From positions 25,296,001 to 25,360,000 of the forward strand of contig NC_083279.1 of NCBI RefSeq assembly GCF_963506605.1: a DNA stretch of 64,000 nucleotides, in the 5' to 3' direction. Shown here one piece after another: positions 18,999 to 64,000 of the stretch. This DNA comes from Zootoca vivipara. Its lineage: Eukaryota. A model generated the notes under the pieces. That model was not told where the DNA came from. It did no database searches and saw only the letters and a program-made list of their open reading frames with translations. Every line of letters starts with the position of its first letter. Positions within the stretch are counted from its first letter, which is position 1. Position numbers and translations under genes: made by a program.

Positions 18999-19038
18999 TT
19001 AAACCTTAAAATTCTTACAACAATACATCTGGTACATA

Positions 19039-19386
19039 GTAAAGGTAAAGGGACCCCTGACCATTAGGTCCAGTCGTGGACAACTCTGGGGTTGTGGCGC
19101 TCATCTTGCTTTACTGGCCAAGGCAGCTGGTGTACAGCTTCCAGGTCATTTGGCCAGCATGACTAAGCCGCTTCTGGCGAAACCAGAGCAGCACATGGAA
19201 ACACTGTTTACCTTCCTGCTGGAGCGGTACCTATTTATCTACTTGCACTTTGATGTGCTTTCGAACTGCTAGGTTGGTAGAAGCAGGGACCAAGCAATGG
19301 GAGCTCACCCCGTCATGGGGATTCAAACTGCCAACCTTCTGATCGGCAAGCCCTAGGCTCTGTGGTTTAGCCCACAGCGCCACCCG
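19039..19386 (-). mobile_element. Sauria SINE, near full length
   Basis: gtaaaggtaaagggacccctgac tail (reverse of the ACCTTT repeats) through a tRNA-like head ending cacagcgccacccg. Confidence 0.9.
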
Positions 19387-19847
19387 TAATACGTAGCAGC
19401 TGCTGCCTATTAAAAACTTATATTTTATATTGATTTCAGTTTATTAGTCATTTATTTATTATAGGCAGGAATATATAACAACCATATTAAAACACAACAC
19501 AAAGATAATAAAATAGTAACAGTAATTAAAATCATTCATAGATTGGTAACACAACCTTTAAGAACATTTTCCTGCATTTTATTGTTGTTACTAATGAATA
19601 TGCAAGTCTCTGTAAGTAACTGTAAGTAAATTATTTTAAACTTACCTTGTAGTCTGTGGTCTGTTTTATTGAATAAGGGGGAAAGGGAGGCAGCTGCCCT
19701 AAGGAGCTGGAATATAATAAATCTTTTTTTAAAAAAGGTTTTAAAAAAATGGTTTTAAAACTTATTCCTATACTTCACAAAATCCGCCTAATGATGGAAT
19801 GTAAATTCTGCTACTTTATGCACAAGCCCCACATATTTAAAACAAGT

Positions 19848-19930
19848 GTGTGCATGCACACGAAAGCTCATACCAATGACAAACTTAGCTGGTCTCTAAG
19901 GTGCTACTGGAAGGAATTTTATTTTCATTT
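19848..19930 (+). mobile_element. truncated Penelope-like terminal fragment
   Basis: gtgtgcatgcacacgaaagctcatacc...aaggtgctactg.aaggaatttt, near-identical to the right arm at 39568-39645. Confidence 0.75.
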
Positions 19931-25368: not shown

Positions 25369-26664
25369 CACGTATCCCCATTTGCAGATGGTGGGCTGAG
25401 AAATAAAAAATATCCAGCGACTTTTGGCTTATTTGAAATTTTAATTGGAGGCTTCTATTTCACAGATTATTTTCCTACTACTATACTACGGTAGCTTCCT
25501 GAAAGCTATGGAGTCAGTGTGCTTCTACATTGCTAATAGGTAGTTTCAATGTCAAATATTTTAATATTCCAAAAACTTTAAGTAGTATATGGTGCCTTGA
25601 GAAATGGCATCAAGGATGCATCCTGGGGTTTCCCATGTAGCAGTGAACATGGAAATCAAAAGTTCTGGTTAGTTTTTATTTTTGTTGAAATAGTGAATGA
25701 AGGTTACCCCATGGCTTAGCATGAATGAAAAAATATGCAGGTTGCTAGGGGGAAGATTGCAGTCACTGTGCTCCTTGACCAGGCCTCCTGCTTCCATGCT
25801 ACCTCTGGAACAAAGTCAATATTTGACATAGCATTGTATCTGAACCTGGGCTTGTGGTTTGCCTTGCTCCAGCTGTGACTAAAACCCCTCCACTGCAGCT
25901 GTCTATGTGCTATATGCATAAGTTTTGGGGGAAGCACTAGATGGAGTGTGTGGCATTGGGAGTGGGACTTATCTGCGTGGCTCATTGCCTTGCTTCCGTG
26001 TTGCTGTACATGGGAGATAGTAACATCTGCAAAGAGCTATAAGTCTAACCCTTTTAAGAGTGAATGTTACTGGCACATAGCAAAATATTCCTAATACAAA
26101 ATTTCTGTACTTTACAACTGTGATATACATTACTATGTAATGGCCCTTCTGGGTTTTGACTGATTTAGTTGGTATACAGAATGAGGAAGAATACAGCATA
26201 ATTTAATAGTGAAATCAGGAAGATCAGCTCACTTAAAGCCAAATTCACAACCCATACATTTGCTAGCTCCATTCCATTGGAATTTGCTTGTAGGATTTAA
26301 ATAAAAGAATCTAGAACTAGCAGGATATTCTCTGCAGATTGTGTGTTTTGTTAGGCTTTCTGCAACAGAAAGAACTATCTGGAATTGGTAAACAGATTAA
26401 ATTGCCGTCAGCAACTGCTGATGATTTTGTATACAATGAAGAGATTAATATTCAGAAGTACTTGTACAAAGGGTGATTTCCCTCCGAAGTGGAAGATTGT
26501 GATGTACAGCTTAACAAGGTCAGATGATTTGATTTTTCTTAGGAAATATAATTATTCAGCTGAGTGTTCATTTAGTTAATTTTACTTTAATAAGAACTTT
26601 TTGTATGTCATGTGCTAACTTTTTAACCTTTATTTCAGGAATACTGGAGCTTACAGTCTGAAAT

Positions 26665-29600
26665 ATGTGTAGTGTTATGCAAGTTGACAACAGAAAAATG
26701 GACATGTTGAAGATCCTGCGTAAAACAACAGAGCGTTTGGAATGTGACCACTGCAGTTTCAGAGGGTCTGACTATGAAAACATACAGATTCATATGGGTA
26801 CTATCCACCCCGAGTTTTGTGATGAAATGGATACAGCAGGACTGGGGAAACTTATATTTTACCAGAAAAGTGCAAAGTTGTTCCACTGCCACAAATGTTT
26901 TTTTACCAGCAAAATGTATTGCAATGTTTATTATCACATCACAGCACACCATGCAATGCCTGACAAATGGAAAGAAGAGCAAAAAGATTTGTTAGCAACA
27001 GGTGCAGAAACTGTAAAGAAACCTCTGTTTGTGGAACCTCAGAAGTCTTCTCCATCTCCTGAGTCACTGAAACCCACTGTTTCTCCTGAATCTCAGAAGC
27101 TGGCTCCCTCTGAACCCCTCAAGCCTGAGGTTGGGTTATCTTCCAAGATACAAAAGCCCATCTCAGTTGTATCCATGGAGCAACCGAAGGTTGCTCCAGT
27201 TGCATGCCCAGAGCCACAGAAACCCATCTCTGTTGCATCATCAGAGCTTCCAAAACCTATTCCAGTGGTGTCATCAGAGCCATTGAAACCAGTCCCTTTT
27301 GTGGCTCCAGAGCCCCTGAAACCCACTCCAGTGGAGTCCTCAGATGTATCAAAACCTGTATCTACTATCTCCCCTGAGCCACAGAAGCCTGGCACAGCCA
27401 CATATGTTGAGCCACAGAAACCCTTCCCTAATGTACATCCAGAATTGCATGTATCTATCTCAGAGTCAGAGAAGCCTGCACCACCTGTTTCTCTAGAACC
27501 ACAAAAACCCCTACAACCTGTATCCCCAGAACCTCAGAAGTCTGCTGTGCCTGCATCTCCACCTGTGGCTGCATCTGAACCACAGAAATTTGCTTCAACT
27601 GTGTCTCCTGAGCCTCGCAGGCATTCTCCGGCTGTGTCTCCTGAGCCTCGCAGGCACTCTCCAGCTGTGTCTCCTGAGCCTCGCAAGCACTCTCCGGCTG
27701 TGTCTCCTGAACCTCGCAGGCACTCTCCAGCAGTGTCTCCTGAGCCCCGCAGGCACTCTCCGGCTGTGTCACCTGAGCTAAAGAAATCTACATCTGCTAT
27801 ATCGTCAGAAACTCGCAGGCATATTCCTCCGATGCGGAGACCTGCTTCAGCGCTTTCCCCTGAACTAAGGAAACCTGAACCACCAATACCAGATCATTGG
27901 AGGTCTGCTCCTAGTATTGCTCCAGAACCCTGGAGGAATGCTCCTAATATTTCCCACGAACAACAGAAGTCTTCTATTACTGTGTCACCTTGGTCCCCCA
28001 AACCTCCCACATCTATGTCAATGGAGTCCAGGAGGCCTGCCTCAGAACCTCGAAGACCAGGTTCTTTGATGTCCCCAGAGCCTCAGAAGTTTGTGCCAGA
28101 GCCTTGGAAATCTACTTCCTTGCCTGAGTCTCAGAAATCTAGTCTTGTTTCCTCAGAGCCCTGGAAACCCATTTCTTCTGTTTATCCTGAAGGCTGGAAA
28201 CCTGTCTTGTCTCCTGACACCTGGAGGTCATCACCAGCAGTACCACCCTCTGCACATCCCATGCCAACAGAGCTTAGAAAGTCTGGTCCCCCAATGTCAC
28301 CTGATCTTTGGAAACCTTCATTCTTTCCTGAACAACGTAAGCCAACTCCTATGTCTCCTGACCCTTGGAAATTCCCTTCTGACTCTCGGAAGTCTCCTTT
28401 CTTTTCAGAGACTCAGAAGCCTGCTCCTTTTGTTTCTTCTGAGTTCCAAAAACGTGCTTTGTTTTCCGAACCCCGAAAACGGGCACTTTTTCCAGAGTCT
28501 AAGAAATCTGTTCCTCCTCCTACTTCTGCTGATGTACAAAAACGTCAATTCTTCCATGAAAGTCACATGTCTTTTCCTGAAGTCCAAAAACATGCCCTGT
28601 TTTCTGAACCTCACAGACCACCTCCTGTTTCACCTGAGGCCCAAAAGCATGCCTTCTTCCCAGAGCCCCAGAAACATGTTGCAGTTTCTCCTGAAGTTCC
28701 AGAGCATGTTCCCTTTGGAGAACCTCAGAAACCTCCTGTTCTTACTCATGAAGTGCTGAAGGCTTCTTCAGTTTCTCCTGAAATTCAGAAACATGCAAGC
28801 TTCGCTGAACCACAGAAGGCTCTTCCAGGTTCCCCTGAGAAACTACGGCAAGGTTTCTTTGCTGAGCCTTCAAAAGGTTCTCTTTCACTTGAGCTCCAAA
28901 AACCTGCTCCTATGTCTTCTGATCCAAAGCAGAACTTTGGTTCTGATGTCCACAGACCACTGGAAACAGCAGGCAGGGAAGTTCACAAAACTGCTGTCTC
29001 TGACTTTGGTCAGTCTGCTGCACCCATTTTTTCAGACTTGCAGGCACATTCCGAATCTGGTAAAGATTTCTTCGCTGAGCAGCCAGAAGGTGAGAATCCA
29101 TTCAGTAGTCTGTTAGCTCCAAAGGAGCAGCTTATACAAGCCAAGGAAGCTAAAGAAGAAGTATTATTTTCTTGTCCAAAGAAGAAACCGAAGAAGGAAA
29201 ATCAGGAAACTGCAAATATAGACCTAAATAACAGTGGGAGTGGAAATAATGAAATGGATACCTCTGAAGTTAAGGAGCAGGAATCAAACAGTGATCAAGA
29301 ACAGTTTGATACAGAAACTTCTGACCTCAACAAAGACACTAAAATTGATGCAGTTACTCCCACTCAGCCTCAGTGTGTGCTGCAGTTTACGGAAGAAAAG
29401 GAAGCCTTTATCTCAGAAGAAGAAATAGCAAAATATATGAAGCGTGGCAAAGGCAAATATTATTGCAAAATTTGTTGCTGCCGGGCTATGAAAAAAGGTG
29501 CTGTTTTGCATCATTTGGTTAACAAGCATAACGTTCACAGTCCATACAAGTGTGACATATGTGGAAAGGCATTTCTCTTGGAATCTCACCTTAAAAACCA

Positions 29601-29847
29601 TGTTGCTGCTCATGGTCAGAGTTTGCTTAAATGTCCACGTTGCAGTTTTGAATCAAACTTTCCTAGAGGCTTTAAGAAGCATCTAACCCATTGCCAAAGT
29701 CGTCATAATGAAGAGGCCAATAAAAAACAGATGGATACAATAACTGAGCCACCTACTCAGAGTGAAGAGGCCAATAAGGTGCCAGTTGATGGCACCGAAC
29801 CATTGAACGAATCACTTATCGAATCACTTACTGAACCACAGATTTAA
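26665..29847 (+). CDS. CHAMP1: Chromosome alignment-maintaining phosphoprotein 1, single coding exon (conserved start probably ATG 26698, MDMLKILRK)
   Basis: 1060-aa ORF; N-terminal LECDHCSFRGSDYENIQIHMGTIHPEFCDEMD and second C2H2 finger; SPE, WK and FPE repeat regions; three C-terminal C2H2 fingers; acceptor tgctaac...tttcag| at 26638. Confidence 0.97.
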   Translation: MCSVMQVDNRKMDMLKILRKTTERLECDHCSFRGSDYENIQIHMGTIHPEFCDEMDTAGLGKLIFYQKSAKLFHCHKCFFTSKMYCNVYYHITAHHAMPDKWKEEQKDLLATGAETVKKPLFVEPQKSSPSPESLKPTVSPESQKLAPSEPLKPEVGLSSKIQKPISVVSMEQPKVAPVACPEPQKPISVASSELPKPIPVVSSEPLKPVPFVAPEPLKPTPVESSDVSKPVSTISPEPQKPGTATYVEPQKPFPNVHPELHVSISESEKPAPPVSLEPQKPLQPVSPEPQKSAVPASPPVAASEPQKFASTVSPEPRRHSPAVSPEPRRHSPAVSPEPRKHSPAVSPEPRRHSPAVSPEPRRHSPAVSPELKKSTSAISSETRRHIPPMRRPASALSPELRKPEPPIPDHWRSAPSIAPEPWRNAPNISHEQQKSSITVSPWSPKPPTSMSMESRRPASEPRRPGSLMSPEPQKFVPEPWKSTSLPESQKSSLVSSEPWKPISSVYPEGWKPVLSPDTWRSSPAVPPSAHPMPTELRKSGPPMSPDLWKPSFFPEQRKPTPMSPDPWKFPSDSRKSPFFSETQKPAPFVSSEFQKRALFSEPRKRALFPESKKSVPPPTSADVQKRQFFHESHMSFPEVQKHALFSEPHRPPPVSPEAQKHAFFPEPQKHVAVSPEVPEHVPFGEPQKPPVLTHEVLKASSVSPEIQKHASFAEPQKALPGSPEKLRQGFFAEPSKGSLSLELQKPAPMSSDPKQNFGSDVHRPLETAGREVHKTAVSDFGQSAAPIFSDLQAHSESGKDFFAEQPEGENPFSSLLAPKEQLIQAKEAKEEVLFSCPKKKPKKENQETANIDLNNSGSGNNEMDTSEVKEQESNSDQEQFDTETSDLNKDTKIDAVTPTQPQCVLQFTEEKEAFISEEEIAKYMKRGKGKYYCKICCCRAMKKGAVLHHLVNKHNVHSPYKCDICGKAFLLESHLKNHVAAHGQSLLKCPRCSFESNFPRGFKKHLTHCQSRHNEEANKKQMDTITEPPTQSEEANKVPVDGTEPLNESLIESLTEPQI
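27601..27779 (+). repeat. coding 33-bp tandem repeat, ~5.4 units (VSPEPRRHSPA)
   Basis: gtgtctcctgagcctcgcaggcactctcc(a/g)gct repeated with few substitutions. Confidence 0.95.
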
Positions 29848-34110: not shown

Positions 34111-34418
34111 AGGTAAAGGTAAAGGTACTGTTAGGTCCAGTCGCGAACAACTCTAGGGTTGCGCACTCATCTCACTCTATAGGCTGAGCCAGCGTTTGTC
34201 CGCAGACAGCTTCCGGGTCATGTGGCTAGCATGACTAAGCCGCTTCTGGTGAAACAGAGCAGTGCACGGAAGCTCTGTTTACCTTCCCGCTGGAGTGGTA
34301 CCTATTTCGAACTGCTGGGACCAAGCAACGGGAGCTCACCCCATTGCGGGGATTCAAACCGCCGACCTGATCGGTAAACCCTAGGCTCTGTGGTTTATAC
34401 CACAGCACCACCCGCACC
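34111..34418 (-). mobile_element. Sauria SINE
   Basis: aggtaaaggtaaaggt tail; 12-bp TSD ccttgacacata (34099-34110, 34419-34430). Confidence 0.9.
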
Positions 34419-37400
34419 CCTTGACACATACAATACCACAATTTGCTGCAACCATGGCAAACAGCATGCTCTCATGTTAACTCTTGGACAAAAAAAAATT
34501 CTCACAGTTCTGCCAGTGGCATCTTTTCCTAGTCCTTTATAGGGTTTGCTCAGATCCTATTTCTTTGTTATGTTTTGACAGGGCAATCTCTAAAATTCAA
34601 GCTACTCCCCCATTACTTTTTATTTTAAAAGCTGTGCTCTACTGAGCCAGGTGTTTCTCTTTTTTAATATACCTCTATTAGCCATCTACCATTTCCACTG
34701 ATGAGAAGACATAATTATGTCTCAAGTGTGTTCCCTCTTAAAATTGCAAAAAAGGACTTTGATTTAGACTTTCTCTAGCCTGCCTATGTTAAAAGCCTGC
34801 AAAAACTTTATCAATGAGCTATTTGAGCAGACTTTTGCTTCTTAGGCACTACTCAAGACATTTTTAGAACTTTTCATACAACACAGCATTTTTCTTATAA
34901 CTGCCATTTAAATTATTTTATGTGCAGAAGCCAAAATAGTGAATGTTTTGCCAGAATGTGGGAGTCTCTTGCAAAGGAATTTCTAGGCAGGCGATGCCAG
35001 AGCACTTAAGAATGTTCAGCTGTGGCAGTGGACAAATATTTGCTTGTAACAGCATTATCTAAAGGGGTCAGAACAATCTGACTTCATTTTTATGGTCCAG
35101 CAAAGTCCTTTTAAACAATGAGAAAACATGGGATGTTTTGACTTTTCTGTTACTAAGCATGGCCAATCTCTTCACTTTCCACTTTCAGCCCACAATCTAG
35201 GATTTAAAAGTGCTGGTGGAAAGGCAAAAACTAATACCAGTATTTCTCATTCTTTTTCTGAATATATTTAGATGCAAATTAGCTATAGAATGAATCTGGC
35301 TCACAGCATTCCATCATATTCTTAGTGCGACCAAGAAATGGCACAGGATGGAACTTTACATGTAGGGAAATGCTACAGTTATTCGGGTCACCAGGGACAA
35401 CAATGGCTCCCGCTCCATCTGTAAGTGCACCTCTATTTTTCACAGTGTAAATAATGCTTTGAATTCATTCAAAAGCCAAGTGCTTCTAAAGTCAAAAGTG
35501 CAGCAAGGTCTGCTTTTGGGATTGCTGAAATGGCAATGATGGGTTCTCGGAGAGTGTGTGTACATGTACCGTAGTACATACATTCTCAGTGCAAAGAAAT
35601 GGACTGCATTTAACTGGGTATCAGAACAAGCCCTCTGCCCAATCATCCTAATGATGTGTATTTTGCTATTGATTTTTTTTAAAAAAACTGTTTTGCTAAT
35701 GATACATGTTCTAACCTGATGATGAATGTTCACTGTCTTCCTTCACACATGCTATCCTTCCTTCTTTGGTACAGCTTCATCCTTCTGGGACAAGGAAAGA
35801 ATGATATACCGGGCACTGAGTGAAACGTCAGCTGTGGTATATTTTCTTGTGTGCCTCCTGGAATCATACTGTCAGCATCTATTCCTTGGCAGAGATCAGG
35901 GCTAGATCATAAACCAAAATTGGTTTGGCTGTTGGCTGTAGCAACTGCTAAAGGCACAGAGTTTTAACCAATAAAGGACTTCTGTTTGTGCAACAAGAAG
36001 ATACGGTACTCTACCTCTCCTCTCCCTGCACACCCTCCTTAGCCACCTCCATCTGTACTGGAGTTTTCCCCACCAGAGCAGATTTGGGTTGGAGGCAGGG
36101 AGACGCAAGTCCCATTGCACAGGCAAAAGCCCTTGCACTAACAGTATGACATCGCAGTGCCCTAAACTTCAATATACCTGCCTACCCATTTAAAACATCC
36201 TGGCTTTTGCTTTCTGATTATAGCAAAGTGTTAATTCACCATAGCCATCTCATATCAACAGCCTCTCAACCGTATTGTCTTGTCTATCCCTGTGTTGTTC
36301 AATAACAACTGCTTGAAAATAAATCCTGAAATCTCTGCATGGAGATTGTTGTCAGCGTCCATATGTTCTCGTTTTAAAAAGCATAAAATAGTTTAATTAG
36401 ATATGCTATTTATTGACTATAGGAATAGGCCTTTATCAGCTAAAAGTTTTAAACTTAAAGAGAGAAATCGCTGGATAGTCACTTCAAATTATGGAGTATT
36501 TTTTAAAAATGCTAGTTAGAATGTATGTGAAATAAATATGCAACTTTTAATAGATACCATCTGTCCTGTCAAACTGTTCTGCTTTTCTTGCTAGGACTGG
36601 TTAATTACGTGACTGGCAACCATTTCAGTAAGGAGGTGTGCTAAAGTCAAATGACTCTCCTCTTTTGTCCTTTGTAATTTTCAGCAAACAATATGGTACT
36701 GTCTCTGCTGACCTTTCGCTGTTCTTTCTTTTAAAAAGAATGCTATTGAGGCTTTGGTGACAACAGACTTAACCATTGCACCCAAAATCTTGAATGGCTT
36801 CCCAAGAACATTTGCAATGTTATTTTAAGGAGCAAAGGAAATTATAAACACAAATGACATTCTTATTCAGGGTTCAGTTGACCAATTTATTTTAAAAAAT
36901 AATGAAAAAAGTTATGATAAGTGAGTTTTAAATAGCAGTTGCCAGTGTATGGAGGGCATGGTGTACATATATTCACCCTCACTTTTCCCGAGTCAATTAC
37001 CTTCAACGGTTAAGTTCAGCTTGTGACTTAATTACTATTTATACCCATCTCTATCTCATACACTCTAGGTAACTTTCTGAAATGTCATCAATATCTGGCT
37101 CACAATCTGGGCTTGTCTACAACAGAACAAAATGTGAGTTTTTATCGTATTTTTGGTCTAGTTTTACTCTCAGAAAGAAAATATAAGATAAAAATGTGAA
37201 ACACAGATGCCCTTAACTCTTAGGCTCAGTGATTTAAAGGTGGCCTCGTCGTTAATCAGCTTCAGGCCATAATTCTCATGGAATCAGGCAAGCTTAAGCA
37301 AAATGCATTTAAACATTATTGTAACTTTAGTGATTATCTATAACAGTTGTAGCCCTGATAAATTATTATATTACTATTACTTTGTATTAGAAATGGCTAT

Positions 37401-39305: not shown

Positions 39306-39446
39306 CTTAACTGACAAGAATGTTAGATTCTTAAACTTTTATTGGCAAACATACAAGATTCCAGTAGGGTTCAGCACCCAAAAACCCCAAAACAAAACAC
39401 CATTCACCCCCCAACCCCTCTGCATCTAAAACTTAAGTTAGTGCTG

Positions 39447-39645
39447 GTTACAGGTAGGTAGCCGTGTTGGTCTGGATCGAAGTAAAATAAAAAAATTCCT
39501 TCAGTAGCACCTTAAAGACCAACTAAGTTTTTATTTTGGTATGAGCTTTCGTGTGGTATCTGAAGAAGTGTGCATGCACACGAAAGCTCATACCAAAATA
39601 AAAACTTAGTTGGTCTTTAAGGTGCTACTGAAGGAATTTTTTTAT
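39447..39645. mobile_element. Penelope-like element remnant with ~70-bp perfect inverted arms
   Basis: arms ~39486-39555 and 39577-39647; 14-bp flanking direct repeat ttaagttagtgctg (39433-39446, 39646-39659). Confidence 0.8.
39554..39595 (+). ncRNA. minimal type I hammerhead ribozyme motif
   Basis: UGGUAU-CUGAAGA-A-GUGUG(CAUG)CACAC-GAAA-GC-UC^-AUACCA: both core boxes, 6-bp helix I, 5-bp helix II, palindromic AGCU in place of helix III. Confidence 0.75.
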
Positions 39646-39829
39646 TTAAGTTAGTGCTGTATACCATTCATGAATCCTCATTGCATGTGGCAGAAACCTG
39701 TCTACACTCTCCATCCCATCCCCATCCTGAGTAAACATAAGGAAGGCTACCTTGCATTCTGAATTCCACTCCCTACTAGCAACCAACTGATTAATAAACT
39801 TAGATCAAATTGTCTAGTACGAGTGCACA

Positions 39830-43423: not shown

Positions 43424-43800
43424 GTGGTCTAAACCACTGAGCCTAGGGCTTGCCGATCAGAAGGTTGGCGGTTCGAATCCCTGCGATGGGCTGCGCTCCC
43501 GTTGCGCCCCAGCTCCTGCCAACCTAGCAGTTCGAAAGCACACCAAAAGTGCAAGTAGATAAATAGGTAACACTCCAGTGGGAAGGTAAATGGCCTTTCT
43601 GTGCACTGCTCTGATGTCAGTGTTCCATTGTGCCAGAAGCAGCTTAGTCATGCTGGCCACATGACCTCGAAAAACTGTCTGCAGAGTAGACAAATGCCAG
43701 CTCCCTCAGCCTGTAAAGCGAGATGAGCGCCGCAACCTCAGAGTCGTTCGCGACTGGACTTAACTGTCAAGGGTCCCTTTACCTTTACCTTTACTTTACC
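43424..43800 (+). mobile_element. Sauria SINE
   Basis: B-box ggttcgaatccc; (ACCTTT)n tail; 7-bp TSD tagagga (43417-43423, 43801-43807). Confidence 0.9.
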
Positions 43801-44382: not shown

Positions 44383-45552
44383 TGTGTGAAAGATGGTGTC
44401 TAATGTAATAAATTATCGAGCAGCAGAATCCAAGTCATAGCTGGAGGGGATAAGAAATTCCATTAGGCCCTGAGCCAAGAATAAGGAAAGGACGAGTAAT
44501 AAGCTGCAACTTGATGGGAGCAAAACTCACTACAAGTTGTGGCAGCAGCAACTTTAGAGCCCTGGCACTGCTGTCATCAATTTATGAGATATTTAAATCA
44601 AGATTCAACAAGCTCCATGGCCGTATGGGATAAGGAAGGATTATTTTGCTGCAGGATCTGTGATTCAAGATTGAGGGTTTTTTTAAAAAAACACAACAGA
44701 TTTTCTAAATGCACAAATTCCTTGTCAGACACCCTACAGTAAAAAAACAACAAAAAAACACGAATGAACATAAAGCATGCTTTGCTCCTTGGTTACATCC
44801 TGTATCTATGGCAGTTTCTTCCTGGGAGCCAGTAGTTTCTTCCTGGGAGCCAGTAGGAAAATCCCATGGCCCTTGCAATGACCAATGTAAATCCTGATTC
44901 TGTGACACCCTGGTCCATTTTACACTGCTGCAATCATCATGGGCATGTCCCCTGCAAATCCCATCATGCTGGCATTGGGAGGCTCACAAGTGCAAGCACT
45001 GTTGTTCTGAACAGTAAAAGCAGGGCCCAACTATCTATGGAAGCAGAAAACTTTCATCTTTACATCCATTATAATGTGCCACCGTTGGCTAAATGGGAAC
45101 CCCAGAGCAGCTGTTTTGCACTGGCTGCTGAAGAATGAGCACAAAAGGCAAGACAGGCCTTGCTCAAGGCACAAAAACATTTATTAATATTGCAGAGGGG
45201 AAATGGATGATATGAAACAAATATTTTAGTAAAGATGACAAATTTCTATGATGCAAAGTTTGTAAGAAGAAATACAGAAGACCCTTTCTGCCCTTGAGAG
45301 AAGCCTTTATTCTCTCAGTCGGAGCTTTTACAAAACGCTGCATGCTGAAAAAGGAAGCTCATAGTTCTTTGTACCATTGTGAAGTGACAGAGCTTGAGAG
45401 AAAAGCTCTGCTCTTTACACAGTCAAGGGTGCTAAAGTCCTGAGCTGGGGTGGGGGAATATCCATGTGAATTTTAAACTTTTACTGCCTGGACACAAGCT
45501 GACAGAAAAGTGGGATAAACCAATAGGGTTTATCTCGTTCATACTGCCTTAA

Positions 45553-45921
45553 AAAGGTAAAGGTAAAGGACCCCTGACAGTTAAGTCCAGTCGTGAATGA
45601 CTCTGGGGTTGTGGCGCTCATCTCGATTTAGTGGCCAAGGGAGCCAACGTTTGTCCGCAGACAGTTTATCCGGGTCATGTGGCCATCATGACTAAGCCAC
45701 TTCTGGCGAAACCAAAGCAGCACATGGAAACGCCGTTTACCTTCCCACCGGAGCGGTACCTATTGATCTACTTGCACTTTGACGTGCTCTCGAACTGCTA
45801 GGTTGACAGGAGCTGGGACCGAGCAATGGGAGCTCACCTCGTCGCAGGGATTCAAACCGGCAACCTTCTGATCGGCAAGCCCTAGGCTCAGTGGTTTAGA
45901 TTATAGCACCACCCGCATCTC
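45553..45921 (-). mobile_element. Sauria SINE
   Basis: aaaggtaaaggtaaagg tail; TSD tactgccttaa (45542-45552, 45926-45936). Confidence 0.9.
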
Positions 45922-46504
45922 TTCGTACTGCCTTAAGGACTCTAAATATGGTTTCAAATTTGTATCTTCCAAGTGTACATATCCAGAGGAATAAATAACT
46001 TGAATCATTTTCTGATTCGCTTTAATCAGCAGCAAACCCACACACTTCATACATTCCTTCGGCTTTGAAGAATGTGTTCCTGATGTCAGCTGATTGCTAG
46101 ATAACACTTTGTGCGTCCTTGAACTTTCAGAACACATTCCCTGCTTTAAGGTTGTCCCCTTGCTCAGTGCATTCTCCTTTAGCTTGTTCTGAAATCTTAG
46201 CATACTACCTCAGCCAAAATAATGTCAACAGGTGAAACTCTGCCTTGTATAAGCACCATGCATGACATCACTCATGTATTGTGGCCATCTAGATGCTAGG
46301 TAAGCCTCTTCTTGAAAAAATATTGGCAAAGCAAATATAGGTGGTTTATTGAGTTGTGATGGGGCATTGTACATGACTGGTGGGTTCCACTTGGCTTGGT
46401 GGATCATAAGTTGTGCAGTTCTAGTTTAATATGAGCCAGGACTCTCAAGAACATAGACCCAAATAATAAAGAGGGGAGACCTCTGAGCATGTGTGAGATA
46501 GCCT

Positions 46505-62088: not shown

Positions 62089-63645
62089 CTACCCGAACAC
62101 ATTGGACTTAGGTCTGAGCTTGAAAGAGGATTTTAGGGACCTTTCTTCTTGACCTTCCTCCTCTGCATCCCCGCGGAAAGAAGGAGTGGTGTGGATGATC
62201 TGGGTCCGGAAGCGGATTTTGTTGAGCCGCGGTTTTATCCTCCCGCTGCCCGAGGTTTTCCTGCTCAGTTCTTTAGCCTTGCCGGGCGCTCCAGCCCCGT
62301 CTCCCGTCTCCCCATCGTCCCCGTGGTGGGGCAGGAGGTGGTGGGAGAGCTTATAGGAGATGAGGTTGGCCGGCAGCACCTTGGAGAGCCTCCAGCGCCC
62401 GCTGCCGTTGGTCGCTCCGCCGTCGGCCTCGTCCTGCAGGGCCCCCACCAGGCTGCGCACCTCGTCGGCGGTGCTGCGGCTCAGGTAGTGCGCGGCCTTG
62501 CGCCCGCTGTAGTCGCGCACGTCCACGTCGGCGTCGTAGGCACCCACCAGCAGCTTGACCACCTCCAGGTGCCCGTGCATGGCGGCCAGGTGCAGCGCCG
62601 TGTAGCCTCCGCTGGTGCGCGCGTTCACGTCCACGGGTAGCCGGTGCCTCTGCGCGAAGTTCACCAGCAGCGCCAGCAGCTCGTGGCGGCCGTGCTTGGC
62701 GGCCCAGTGCACGCACGTGAAGCCCGTGATGAAGTCCCGCTTGCACAGCAGCGACGGCTCGCAGCTCAGCAGGCCCTCTAGGCTCTCCCAGCGGCCGTCC
62801 GAAGCGCACAGCATCCACGCGTGCTCCAGGGGGTCCAGGGCCACCGAGGCGCCCGAGTTGCTGCCGCCCTCGTCCTCAGCAGAAGACGACGCCAGCGAGG
62901 CGCTGTCCGAGTCCCCCCCGCTGGCGGTGGAGCGGCTCCCGCGAGGGGCAAGCCCGCCGCCGCGCTTCAGCTGAGGGGAGCTGCCCAGCATCCGCTCGCG
63001 GAAGTTCTTGCGCGCGCAACGCGGGGTGGTGGCGGGGGCCGCCGCGGGGGCAACCCCCGAGGCGGCGGCGGCGGAGTCGTCCTCAGGCGGGGTCTCGCCA
63101 CTGCCCGGCTCTGGCTCCCCGTGCTGAGAGCGGCTGTCCTCCTGCTCCTCTCTCCCCTCCTGGCCTCCTCCTCCTCCAGGGGTCGCCTGAGGCACCTCAG
63201 CGGCATCGGGCGCCTCAAGCTGCCGGGGTCCGCTTTCCTCCACAGCAACAGGGAGGCTCCTTTTCGCCGCCGCCGCCGCCACCTCCTCCTCTTCCTTCTG
63301 GGGCTCCCCCGCTTCTCGCCGGGCAGCTTCGCCATCTCCGCCAGGCTCGGGGGGCAGCCGGGGCCCCCCGGGTTCCTCAGCCGGCTCGGCGGCCACGACG
63401 GCAACGGCGACCCTGTACTTCTTCCTCAGCTGCACGTACTTGGCCCCGGAGCCGGGCTCTTGCCTCACGGTAGCCACGGCGTTGACCATCTCTTTGAAGC
63501 GCTCCCTGGCGCGCGAGCGGCGCTGCTGGTCGGGGGAGTTGAGGTAGCCTCGGAAGTGGTCCAACAGGTCGGCGTTGCGAGCCCGACCTCCCCGCTCCGA
63601 TAGGAACTGAAGCACCGCGTCCTGGCTCGGCTCCGCTGCGGCCAT
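62089..63645 (-). CDS. SOWAHC: Ankyrin repeat domain-containing protein SOWAHC (ANKRD57), intronless, 518 aa
   Basis: N-terminal AVLQFLSERGGRARNADLLDHFR...FKEMVNAVATVR; LDPLEHAWML; ankyrin repeats DFITGFTCVHWAAKHG and GYTALHLAAMHGH; C-terminus KLRPKSNVFG. Confidence 0.93.
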   Translation of the reverse strand: MAAAEPSQDAVLQFLSERGGRARNADLLDHFRGYLNSPDQQRRSRARERFKEMVNAVATVRQEPGSGAKYVQLRKKYRVAVAVVAAEPAEEPGGPRLPPEPGGDGEAARREAGEPQKEEEEVAAAAAKRSLPVAVEESGPRQLEAPDAAEVPQATPGGGGGQEGREEQEDSRSQHGEPEPGSGETPPEDDSAAAASGVAPAAAPATTPRCARKNFRERMLGSSPQLKRGGGLAPRGSRSTASGGDSDSASLASSSAEDEGGSNSGASVALDPLEHAWMLCASDGRWESLEGLLSCEPSLLCKRDFITGFTCVHWAAKHGRHELLALLVNFAQRHRLPVDVNARTSGGYTALHLAAMHGHLEVVKLLVGAYDADVDVRDYSGRKAAHYLSRSTADEVRSLVGALQDEADGGATNGSGRWRLSKVLPANLISYKLSHHLLPHHGDDGETGDGAGAPGKAKELSRKTSGSGRIKPRLNKIRFRTQIIHTTPSFRGDAEEEGQEERSLKSSFKLRPKSNVFG

Positions 63646-64000
63646 CGGAGCGCAGAGGGACCCAACTGTCGCCGCCTCCGCCGCGCAGCGAACTGAAGGC
63701 GGCTCAGCGCGCGGTCGTCGCCTCCTCCCTCCTCGCGTTGCCCCATGGCATCGTCGCTAACATTTCCCTCAGGGCTCCTGAGGCGGCATCGCCAGGCTCA
63801 AATCACGGCGCCGACGTCAACGTCGTCGTCCTCGCCGCTCCCTGGCATTATACCCATTCCAGGCGCTCGCCGCCTCCCTCACGTGACGCCAGCCTGAGGG
63901 GGAACGAGGGCGGCGCCTACCGGCACAGTTTAAATTCGGAGGAGGAGGAGGAGGAGTCCGAGCGAGCGGCGCGGCCCTCTTGAGGGCGGGGCTGTTAATG
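63646..64000. promoter_or_regulatory. CpG-island promoter / 5' UTR of SOWAHC
   Basis: CpG-dense and continuous with the CDS; E-box tcacgtgac (63879-63887); GC box gggcgggg (~63984). Confidence 0.7.

Follow-up and report, generated by a model that had tools for sequence, protein, structure and literature searches.

A head-to-head stub of a Penelope-like element with a predicted hammerhead ribozyme in Zootoca vivipara, and a proposed paired-priming model for its formation

The window analysed here is a stretch of 64,000 nucleotides from Zootoca vivipara (NCBI RefSeq assembly GCF_963506605.1, contig NC_083279.1, positions 25,296,001 to 25,360,000 of the forward strand). It contains a 199-bp insert (39447-39645), which sits between genes, namely a zinc-finger ORF (26662-29847) that we take to be CHAMP1-like and an ankyrin-type ORF (62089-63756) that is presumably SOWAH-like. 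The insert is flanked on both sides by TTAAGTTAGTGCTG (39433-39446 and 39646-39659), a repeat of exactly 14 bp, and no other exact 14-mer repeat with the insert's spacing occurs at the 63,600 window positions compared. Two perfect inverted arms, each 71 bp long (39485-39555 and 39577-39647), enclose a spacer of 21 nt, and the last two bases of the right arm are shared with the target duplication. These observations bear out a first-pass annotation of the sequence, which had described a 199-bp insertion with a 14-bp flanking duplication and perfect inverted arms of about 70 bp. Inside the duplication, the insert consists of two copies of the pLTR end, one with and one without a tail. Its features are given below; published work is cited by its identifier.

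39433 to 39446, no strand: left copy of the target-site duplication; duplications of 12-16 bp occur in 20 of 22 related stubs
39447 to 39555, minus strand: left arm, antisense copy of the pLTR end that begins where the tail ends (priming site 1, about +130) and extends back as far as +21 in stem II; 105 of 109 positions identical to the full-length copy L141
39447 to 39484, minus strand: one-sided tail of 38 nt, located just upstream of the ORF start codon in full-length copies; such tails are described in PMC8557442 and PMC11167929
39485 to 39555, no strand: left perfect inverted arm, 71 bp
39555, plus strand: G at -1, which closes the left arm and may in addition represent a reverse-transcribed RNA cap; G occupies -1 in 70 of the 100 listed copies with a non-native base there
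39556 to 39645, plus strand: right arm, sense, which begins with the first base of the ribozyme (G0, putative transcription start) and ends at priming site 2, a U-rich site at about +90; 91 of 92 positions identical to L141 over 39556-39647
39556 to 39593, plus strand: minimal type I hammerhead motif with core boxes and features as in PMC4209133; predicted activity
39556 to 39559 and 39590 to 39593, plus strand: helix I, GUAU and AUAC
39560 to 39566, plus strand: CUGAAGA, followed by a bulged A
39568 to 39581, plus strand: stem II, itself a 14-nt palindrome
39577 to 39647, no strand: right perfect inverted arm, 71 bp
39582 to 39585, plus strand: GAAA; helix III AGCU follows at 39585 to 39588, with the predicted cut after 39589
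39646 to 39659, no strand: right copy of the target-site duplication, exact 14-bp match

That the insert is a stub of a Penelope-like element is nearly certain, and a young Penelope-type element has left such short stubs by the thousand in this genome. The left arm would represent the first cDNA and the right arm the second. Because 91 of 92 positions of the right arm and 105 of 109 of the left arm match L141, the insertion is young; the recent origin proposed in the first-pass annotation is further upheld by a 199/199 copy elsewhere in the genome. Among the joints listed for two DNA contig sets, which hold 205 further joints, no empty allele of the locus was seen. The locus itself is ordinary, and both the palindromic pLTR layout and the minimal hammerhead have already been published. 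The window also harbours an older solo stub of the same family (about 19845-19925, plus strand), which begins in stem II and lacks CUGANGA. Another dispersed repeat of about 350 bp, presumably Sauria-SINE-like, is present in several copies (19033-19394, 34127-34422, 43424-43792 and 45550-45923). Moreover, inverted arms of 36 bp, 188 nt apart and 97% complementary (53264-53523), appear by eye to be unrelated to the Penelope-like element.

A scan of the whole window for the hammerhead core (CUGANGA, stem II and GAAA) gave one match, on the plus strand at 39560, and none on the minus strand, as expected from the earlier statement that the minus-strand copy lacks CUGANGA. The core boxes with cleavage after C39589 (C17) hold as a sequence prediction, and the assignment to the minimal type I hammerheads with a palindromic AGCU helix III matches the description of this class (PMC4209133). 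The proposed 6-bp helix I (UGGUAU/AUACCA) had to be revised, as it is chimeric: the additional UG stems from the junction, 39554-39555 belonging to the left arm or the junction. Full-length copies read ...CTAGT followed by GTATCTGA upstream of the ribozyme, and the native helix I thus comprises 4 bp (GUAU/AUAC). TGGTAT (919 exact matches) was dismissed as the start of the element; it is an artefact of the search pattern, and in solo copies the TG is often part of the target duplication. The Infernal comparison with the Rfam hammerhead models, which the annotation had named as a check, did not confirm the motif: no hammerhead family was found at E<=10, and the Rfam scans gave only unspecific miRNA-type hairpin matches below gathering scores. 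The ribozyme call therefore relies on the core boxes and not on Infernal, and the miss is probably due to the absent helix III. Conservation of the core across copies was borne out in a set of 115 copies found without the ribozyme letters, in which N7 differs in 13 and every other core position in 0-4, which is modest evidence in such a young family. By the same modest evidence, the variability of N7 hints that the ribozyme may be under selection in the parent element. For a native 5' RNA begun at G0, folding predicts helix I with P 0.69-0.80 and stem II with P 0.96-0.97. Minimal metazoan Penelope-like hammerheads are described as inactive as monomers (PMC4209133), and cleavage as dimers is reported (PMC5785218, through a passage in the review PMC6765202).

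The link to a Penelope-like element and the existence of an autonomous partner with RT and GIY-YIG domains, both put forward in the first-pass annotation, proved correct, since the parent encodes both domains and carries the same ribozyme and tail. For instance, the locus L032 joins this ribozyme and tail to a GIY-YIG frame, and L141 is a full copy composed of a truncated pLTR, an intact 901-aa ORF and a second pLTR. In L141 and L142, ribozyme and pLTR sequence is found on both sides of the ORF (partial tandem). The 901-aa ORF contains RVT_1 (PF00078, 433-577, E 2e-11) together with a GIY-YIG domain at its C-terminus (PF01541, 799-840). The parent protein also carries VYAIKCQRCPSALYIG and downstream histidines, compared by eye with PMC8557442, which places it among the endonuclease-bearing elements. 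The linker before the endonuclease is CNKPRCQLC (CX4CxxC); a CX2-5CxxC linker defines the Neptune/Nematis type (PMC8557442), to which the parent element belongs as judged by this motif. When the 142-aa endonuclease piece of L032 was scored at 150 places, 133 of them matched it with 100% identity, several inside open frames of 925 codons. The best named relatives of the 901-aa protein (P0001, L141:4306-7011) are turtle proteins (60-69% identity), and a crinoid protein is 50% identical to it; the high identity could reflect horizontal transfer or strong constraint. A genome-wide copy count, again a check named in the annotation, covered 1.44 Gb in 48 contigs and gave more than 10,000 exact ribozyme copies: the 33-nt ribozyme core has 14,239 exact copies and a 34-mer downstream of the ribozyme 17,533 exact matches, each inverted insertion being counted twice. 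Most loci that were analysed more closely are located in the first 33 Mb of contig C1. One of them, L115 (C1 2.7775-2.7797 Mb), is an array of four units arranged head to tail at a distance of 598 bp, and every unit comprises the ribozyme, the tail and an ORF with an internal deletion; it is retrozyme-like and consistent with a circular or tandem template.

As regards the outer ends of the insertions, element copies fall into two classes, with a 3' end at the U-rich site (about +81 to +98) in one and at the end of the tail (about +125 to +140) in the other. In a position-based sample (L061-L130) the tail is present on exactly one arm in 32 of 34 inverted pairs. A one-sided tail was likewise found in 87 of 92 pairs after 30 window-like loci had been left out, and in 69 of 73 pairs as compared with 36.5 expected under independent ends (p 1e-16). 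Moreover, the two arms of a pair resemble each other: at a common A/T subfamily site, both carry the same letter in 29 of 30 pairs (Fisher p 4e-7) and in 60 of 61 pairs of a larger set, and a 47-nt stretch is identical in 54 of 78 true arm pairs, window-like loci included, versus a mean of 22.7 (maximum 35) in 2,000 shuffles. One-sided tails and concordant arms together argue for a single template source with two fixed start points. However, the concordance would also fit two RNAs of one locus or a later homogenisation of the arms, which weakens the case for priming of both arms on one RNA.

The inner ends point to the 5' end of this template. The base before G0 is non-native in 3,953 ribozyme copies and native in 10,286. 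Of 100 listed non-native copies, 94 are true breaks at G0 and 6 continue as native sequence, so that about 26% of the exact ribozyme copies start at G0. A matched control at +4 yielded 687 copies, which are probably substitutions because 60 of 100 listed cases are C. At -1, G was found in 70 of 100 listed G0 copies as opposed to 12 of 100 at the control. Among 52 solo copies, the duplication was found in 31; seven of them have one extra base, which is G in six, and nine abut the duplication directly, seven of these at a G, the flank G content being 21%. An extra G is a mark of capping in L1 insertions (PMC11702581). Part of the excess may come from letters of the left arm or of templated inserts, or from an RT adding C: 31 of 42 inverted junctions have the G, several of them after 'ttcttca', and in 16 of 37 solo G copies the duplication was not found. 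A TATA-like box is located at -29 to -34 from G0, mostly at -31, in several subfamilies whose upstream letters otherwise differ. Unlike the Drosophila Penelope promoter, which is TATA-less and internal (PMC2377424), the Zootoca element has its box upstream of G0. We infer that transcription begins at the first base of the ribozyme, about 31 nt after this box; the start may not be confined to one base, as 5' ends at -1 to -3 also occur. Two other explanations of the boundary were set aside: a splice acceptor, as one subfamily has CAC instead of YAG at the same TATA spacing, and a start at A(-3) with a cap G, as G occurs in 7 of 100 copies and the A is mostly a subfamily variant. At the cleavage site, for which the search pattern covers the younger subfamilies only, 342 preceding bases are non-native, and 10 of 25 inspected are breaks, which is less than 1% of about 17,500. 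Thus, no peak of ends from cleaved RNA is seen at this site in the younger subfamilies, and the template RNA appears to have been capped and uncleaved. In a separate case, the arm junction of L159 contains the inserted telomere-repeat-like letters TAGGGTTAG.

RNA data were taken from three raw runs of one study (X20-X22) of fragmented RNA-seq. They neither support nor contradict a start at G0 or cleavage of the RNA: the three runs have no pile of read starts or ends at G0 or at the cleavage site. Almost no reads map to the element ORF, and coverage comes mostly from stubs in host transcripts, 86-89% of the reads running into other sequence. The unique flanks of the window insert have no reads in two runs, of which about 6% each was read. 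At L141:4221, A-to-G is far more common in one read direction (122/669 versus 30/2480, 156/378 versus 12/660 and 30/292 versus 7/357 in X20-X22), which could be due to editing of hairpin transcripts or to one expressed variant locus.

The annotation had further noted that the left arm is complementary to the 3' half of the ribozyme and that the long hairpin and the active fold exclude each other, and had raised the possibility of a built-in off switch. As a prediction, the exclusion holds (-118.6 kcal/mol for the hairpin versus -89.7 kcal/mol with ribozyme helices I and II forced), and the ribozyme of the window copy is predicted to be trapped in the hairpin, without any function. As the hairpin is favoured by about 29 kcal/mol, there is one predicted state rather than two. 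Complementarity, the strongly favoured hairpin and the abundance of family stubs in host transcripts would suit an inverted arm selected to turn the ribozyme off in read-through transcripts. However, the switch was not supported: the layout is generic for Penelope-like elements (PMC3846280, PMC8557442), 64 insertions have 56 different junction groups, and minimal ribozymes are inactive as monomers anyway (PMC4209133). The window copy itself lies between genes, has no TATA region or promoter, and its flanks lack reads in the sampled parts of the two runs. We therefore regard selection for a switch as very improbable, and the hairpin is probably a by-product of insertion.

How the hairpin came about is a question on which the two arms themselves are informative. 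As suggested in PMC3846280, one cDNA could fold back and copy itself, or self-prime on an antisense template. Arms with identical private variants are expected from such a process, stem II as a 14-nt palindrome is suited to snap-back, and templated inverted bits do occur at junctions. However, the tail is only in the left arm and +0 to +20 only in the right arm; each arm thus holds sequence that is absent from the other, which disfavours fold-back of a tail-primed cDNA. Such a cDNA would also predict that the tail arm reaches further 5'. The opposite was observed: of 43 short mixed pairs, 29 have a site-2 arm that extends further 5' and 7 a tail arm that does so, with 7 ties, in a comparison in which several 5'-end calls of the older subfamily failed (value 46) and two pairs share one junction. 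In a position-based subset counted by hand, which includes the two pairs with one junction, the site-2 arm reaches further in 11 of 14, the tail arm in 1, and 2 are ties. The window copy follows this asymmetry, its right arm starting at G0 and its left arm stopping at +21. Finally, the cap-like G at the sense-strand start fits a sense template, and fold-back is an unlikely origin. Such an asymmetry would result if a leading RT worked on free RNA and a trailing RT had to displace it.

The junctions between the arms are diverse, 49 of the 56 groups among the 64 short inverted insertions being singletons. This diversity bears on a further alternative, a self-propagating non-autonomous palindromic mini-element, of which the whole hairpin would be transcribed and re-inserted as a unit. 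Some loci speak for it. Contig C10 carries a 199/199 identical copy of the insert with its own duplication, which may reflect a recurrent simple junction or a re-copied hairpin centre. Four loci (L280-L283; C1 15.32, 15.58 and 17.10 Mb, C19 5.36 Mb) have one complex junction and a one-arm-only substitution in common, each with its own duplication of 12-15 bp and unrelated flanks; three of them lie within 1.8 Mb on C1. The tail belongs to the sense arm at three of the four loci and to the antisense arm at the other. A second junction with a one-arm-only change is shared by L284 and L285 (C1 2.106 and 3.656 Mb, 1.55 Mb apart), which have different duplications and represent the only two exact occurrences of this junction in the genome. 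Thus, not every junction was made anew, and two small lineages share hairpin centres, which could be due to re-retrotransposition of a transcribed hairpin or to ectopic gene conversion at break-prone palindromes. However, the exact junction of the window occurs only 15 times genome-wide and on many different subfamily backgrounds, most junction groups are singletons, and ectopic gene conversion would also account for shared-centre loci that lie within 1.6-1.8 Mb of each other and for the tail on the other arm in one of them. A mini-element therefore seems an improbable general explanation. A MITE-like or SINE-like unit was rejected on related grounds, since apart from the shared-centre loci there is no fixed internal sequence in all copies.

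The reading that we prefer is paired priming. It is near certain that the insert is a head-to-head stub of an endonuclease-bearing Penelope-like element, and it is likely that it arose in situ, when both nicked strands primed reverse transcription on the 5' end of one capped, uncleaved RNA. Transcription would start at the first base of the ribozyme, about 31 nt past the TATA-like box, and the element protein would nick both target strands about 14 bp apart. One target 3' end would prime at the U-rich site (+90), run to the cap and often add a cap-derived base, and the other would follow behind after priming at the end of the tail, which is located about 38 nt more 3'. The trailing cDNA would usually stop or be trimmed earlier, in the window copy within stem II, before end joining fuses both cDNAs. 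The ribozyme would be carried along because it forms the first 38 nt of the element RNA. The anole Poseidon protein has been studied in vitro (PMC11167929): it cleaves and elongates the two strands, initiates at two internal sites that are adjacent, and works on uncleaved RNA; by analogy, the two start sites and two-strand extension proposed here match the anole element. However, the same study found no strand difference in the start site and examined another clade (PMC11167929); the two lineages with shared hairpin centres are a further point against paired priming.

A broader reading, for which we see about even chances, combines obligatory paired priming by a protein dimer on one capped RNA, a ribozyme that acts as a decapping brake or circle-making step, and centres that spread locally. 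The leading RT would run from the U-rich site to the cap, and the trailing RT from the tail end would displace it. The mRNA would begin with the 38 nt of the hammerhead, so that cleavage would take off the cap; cleaved RNA would almost never be inserted, and the ribozyme would not make the template's 5' end. If this is true, about one quarter of the ribozyme-bearing copies are integrated 'strong-stop'-like cDNAs, and hairpin centres can also spread between nearby loci. In the literature searched, which comprised few subscription papers, neither paired priming nor a cap signature was found stated for Penelope-like elements; relevant junction data may exist in the supplements of PMC11167929. The formation of their inverted repeats and tails has been called undefined (PMC8557442) and the role of the ribozyme is regarded as open (PMC11167929), which makes the Zootoca family useful. 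More than 10,000 near-identical insertions are available in the genome together with intact 901-aa copies, and the end statistics give sharp predictions for the existing in vitro assay, namely one start site per strand, one RNA, run-off to the cap at the first base of the ribozyme, and cleaved RNA left unused.

Among known systems, Adineta Pen2a (PMC3846280) and the scheme in PMC8557442 are close to the window insert, with head-to-head 5'-truncated pLTRs, a short target duplication, an optional tail of 30-40 bp at one end, and TATA and Inr-like motifs in the pLTR. The insert indeed combines an inverted 5'-truncated pLTR with a one-sided tail in this range (38 nt) and a target duplication (14 bp). 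Unlike Pen2a, the arms of the stub are only about 100 bp long and have no ORF. Moreover, the passages in PMC3846280 and PMC8557442 propose antisense self-priming or endonuclease resolution, whereas the copies described here favour two primings on sense RNA. The green anole Poseidon PAc (PMC11167929) is also a reptile element with a hammerhead in the pLTR, in which two adjacent internal RT starts define the tail, both strands are cut and extended, and uncleaved RNA is the substrate. However, PAc belongs to the Penelope/Poseidon clade, and the Zootoca parent has the CX2-5CxxC linker of the Neptune/Nematis type; in PAc, the ORF begins within the ribozyme and RT is initiated 111-118 nt into the ORF (PMC11167929), whereas the Zootoca ORF starts just after the tail.

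With the metazoan minimal hammerheads (PMC4209133), the motif shares the core boxes, a bulged base before stem II, the G10.1-C11.1 pair, a 4-bp helix I and the palindromic 15.2/16.2 positions; that study also mentions paired motifs on opposite strands, separated by 100-700 bp. The stem II described here differs in having 5 bp and a 4-nt loop and in being fully palindromic, and its cleavage is predicted from sequence. Non-LTR retrozymes (bioRxiv 10.64898/2026.07.22.740005) are likewise short, non-coding, hammerhead-bearing and pLTR-derived. However, they are head-to-tail tandems with a ribozyme per unit, and the insert was not assigned to them because it is a single head-to-head stub with one whole ribozyme. 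As in the model proposed here, both target ends prime on RNA and end joining fuses the cDNAs in L1 twin priming, and full run-off leaves an extra G (PMC11702581). In L1, the second primer gives a 5' inversion with little overlap between the cDNAs, whereas in the model proposed for the stub the two cDNAs have 71 nt in common and start at two fixed sites.
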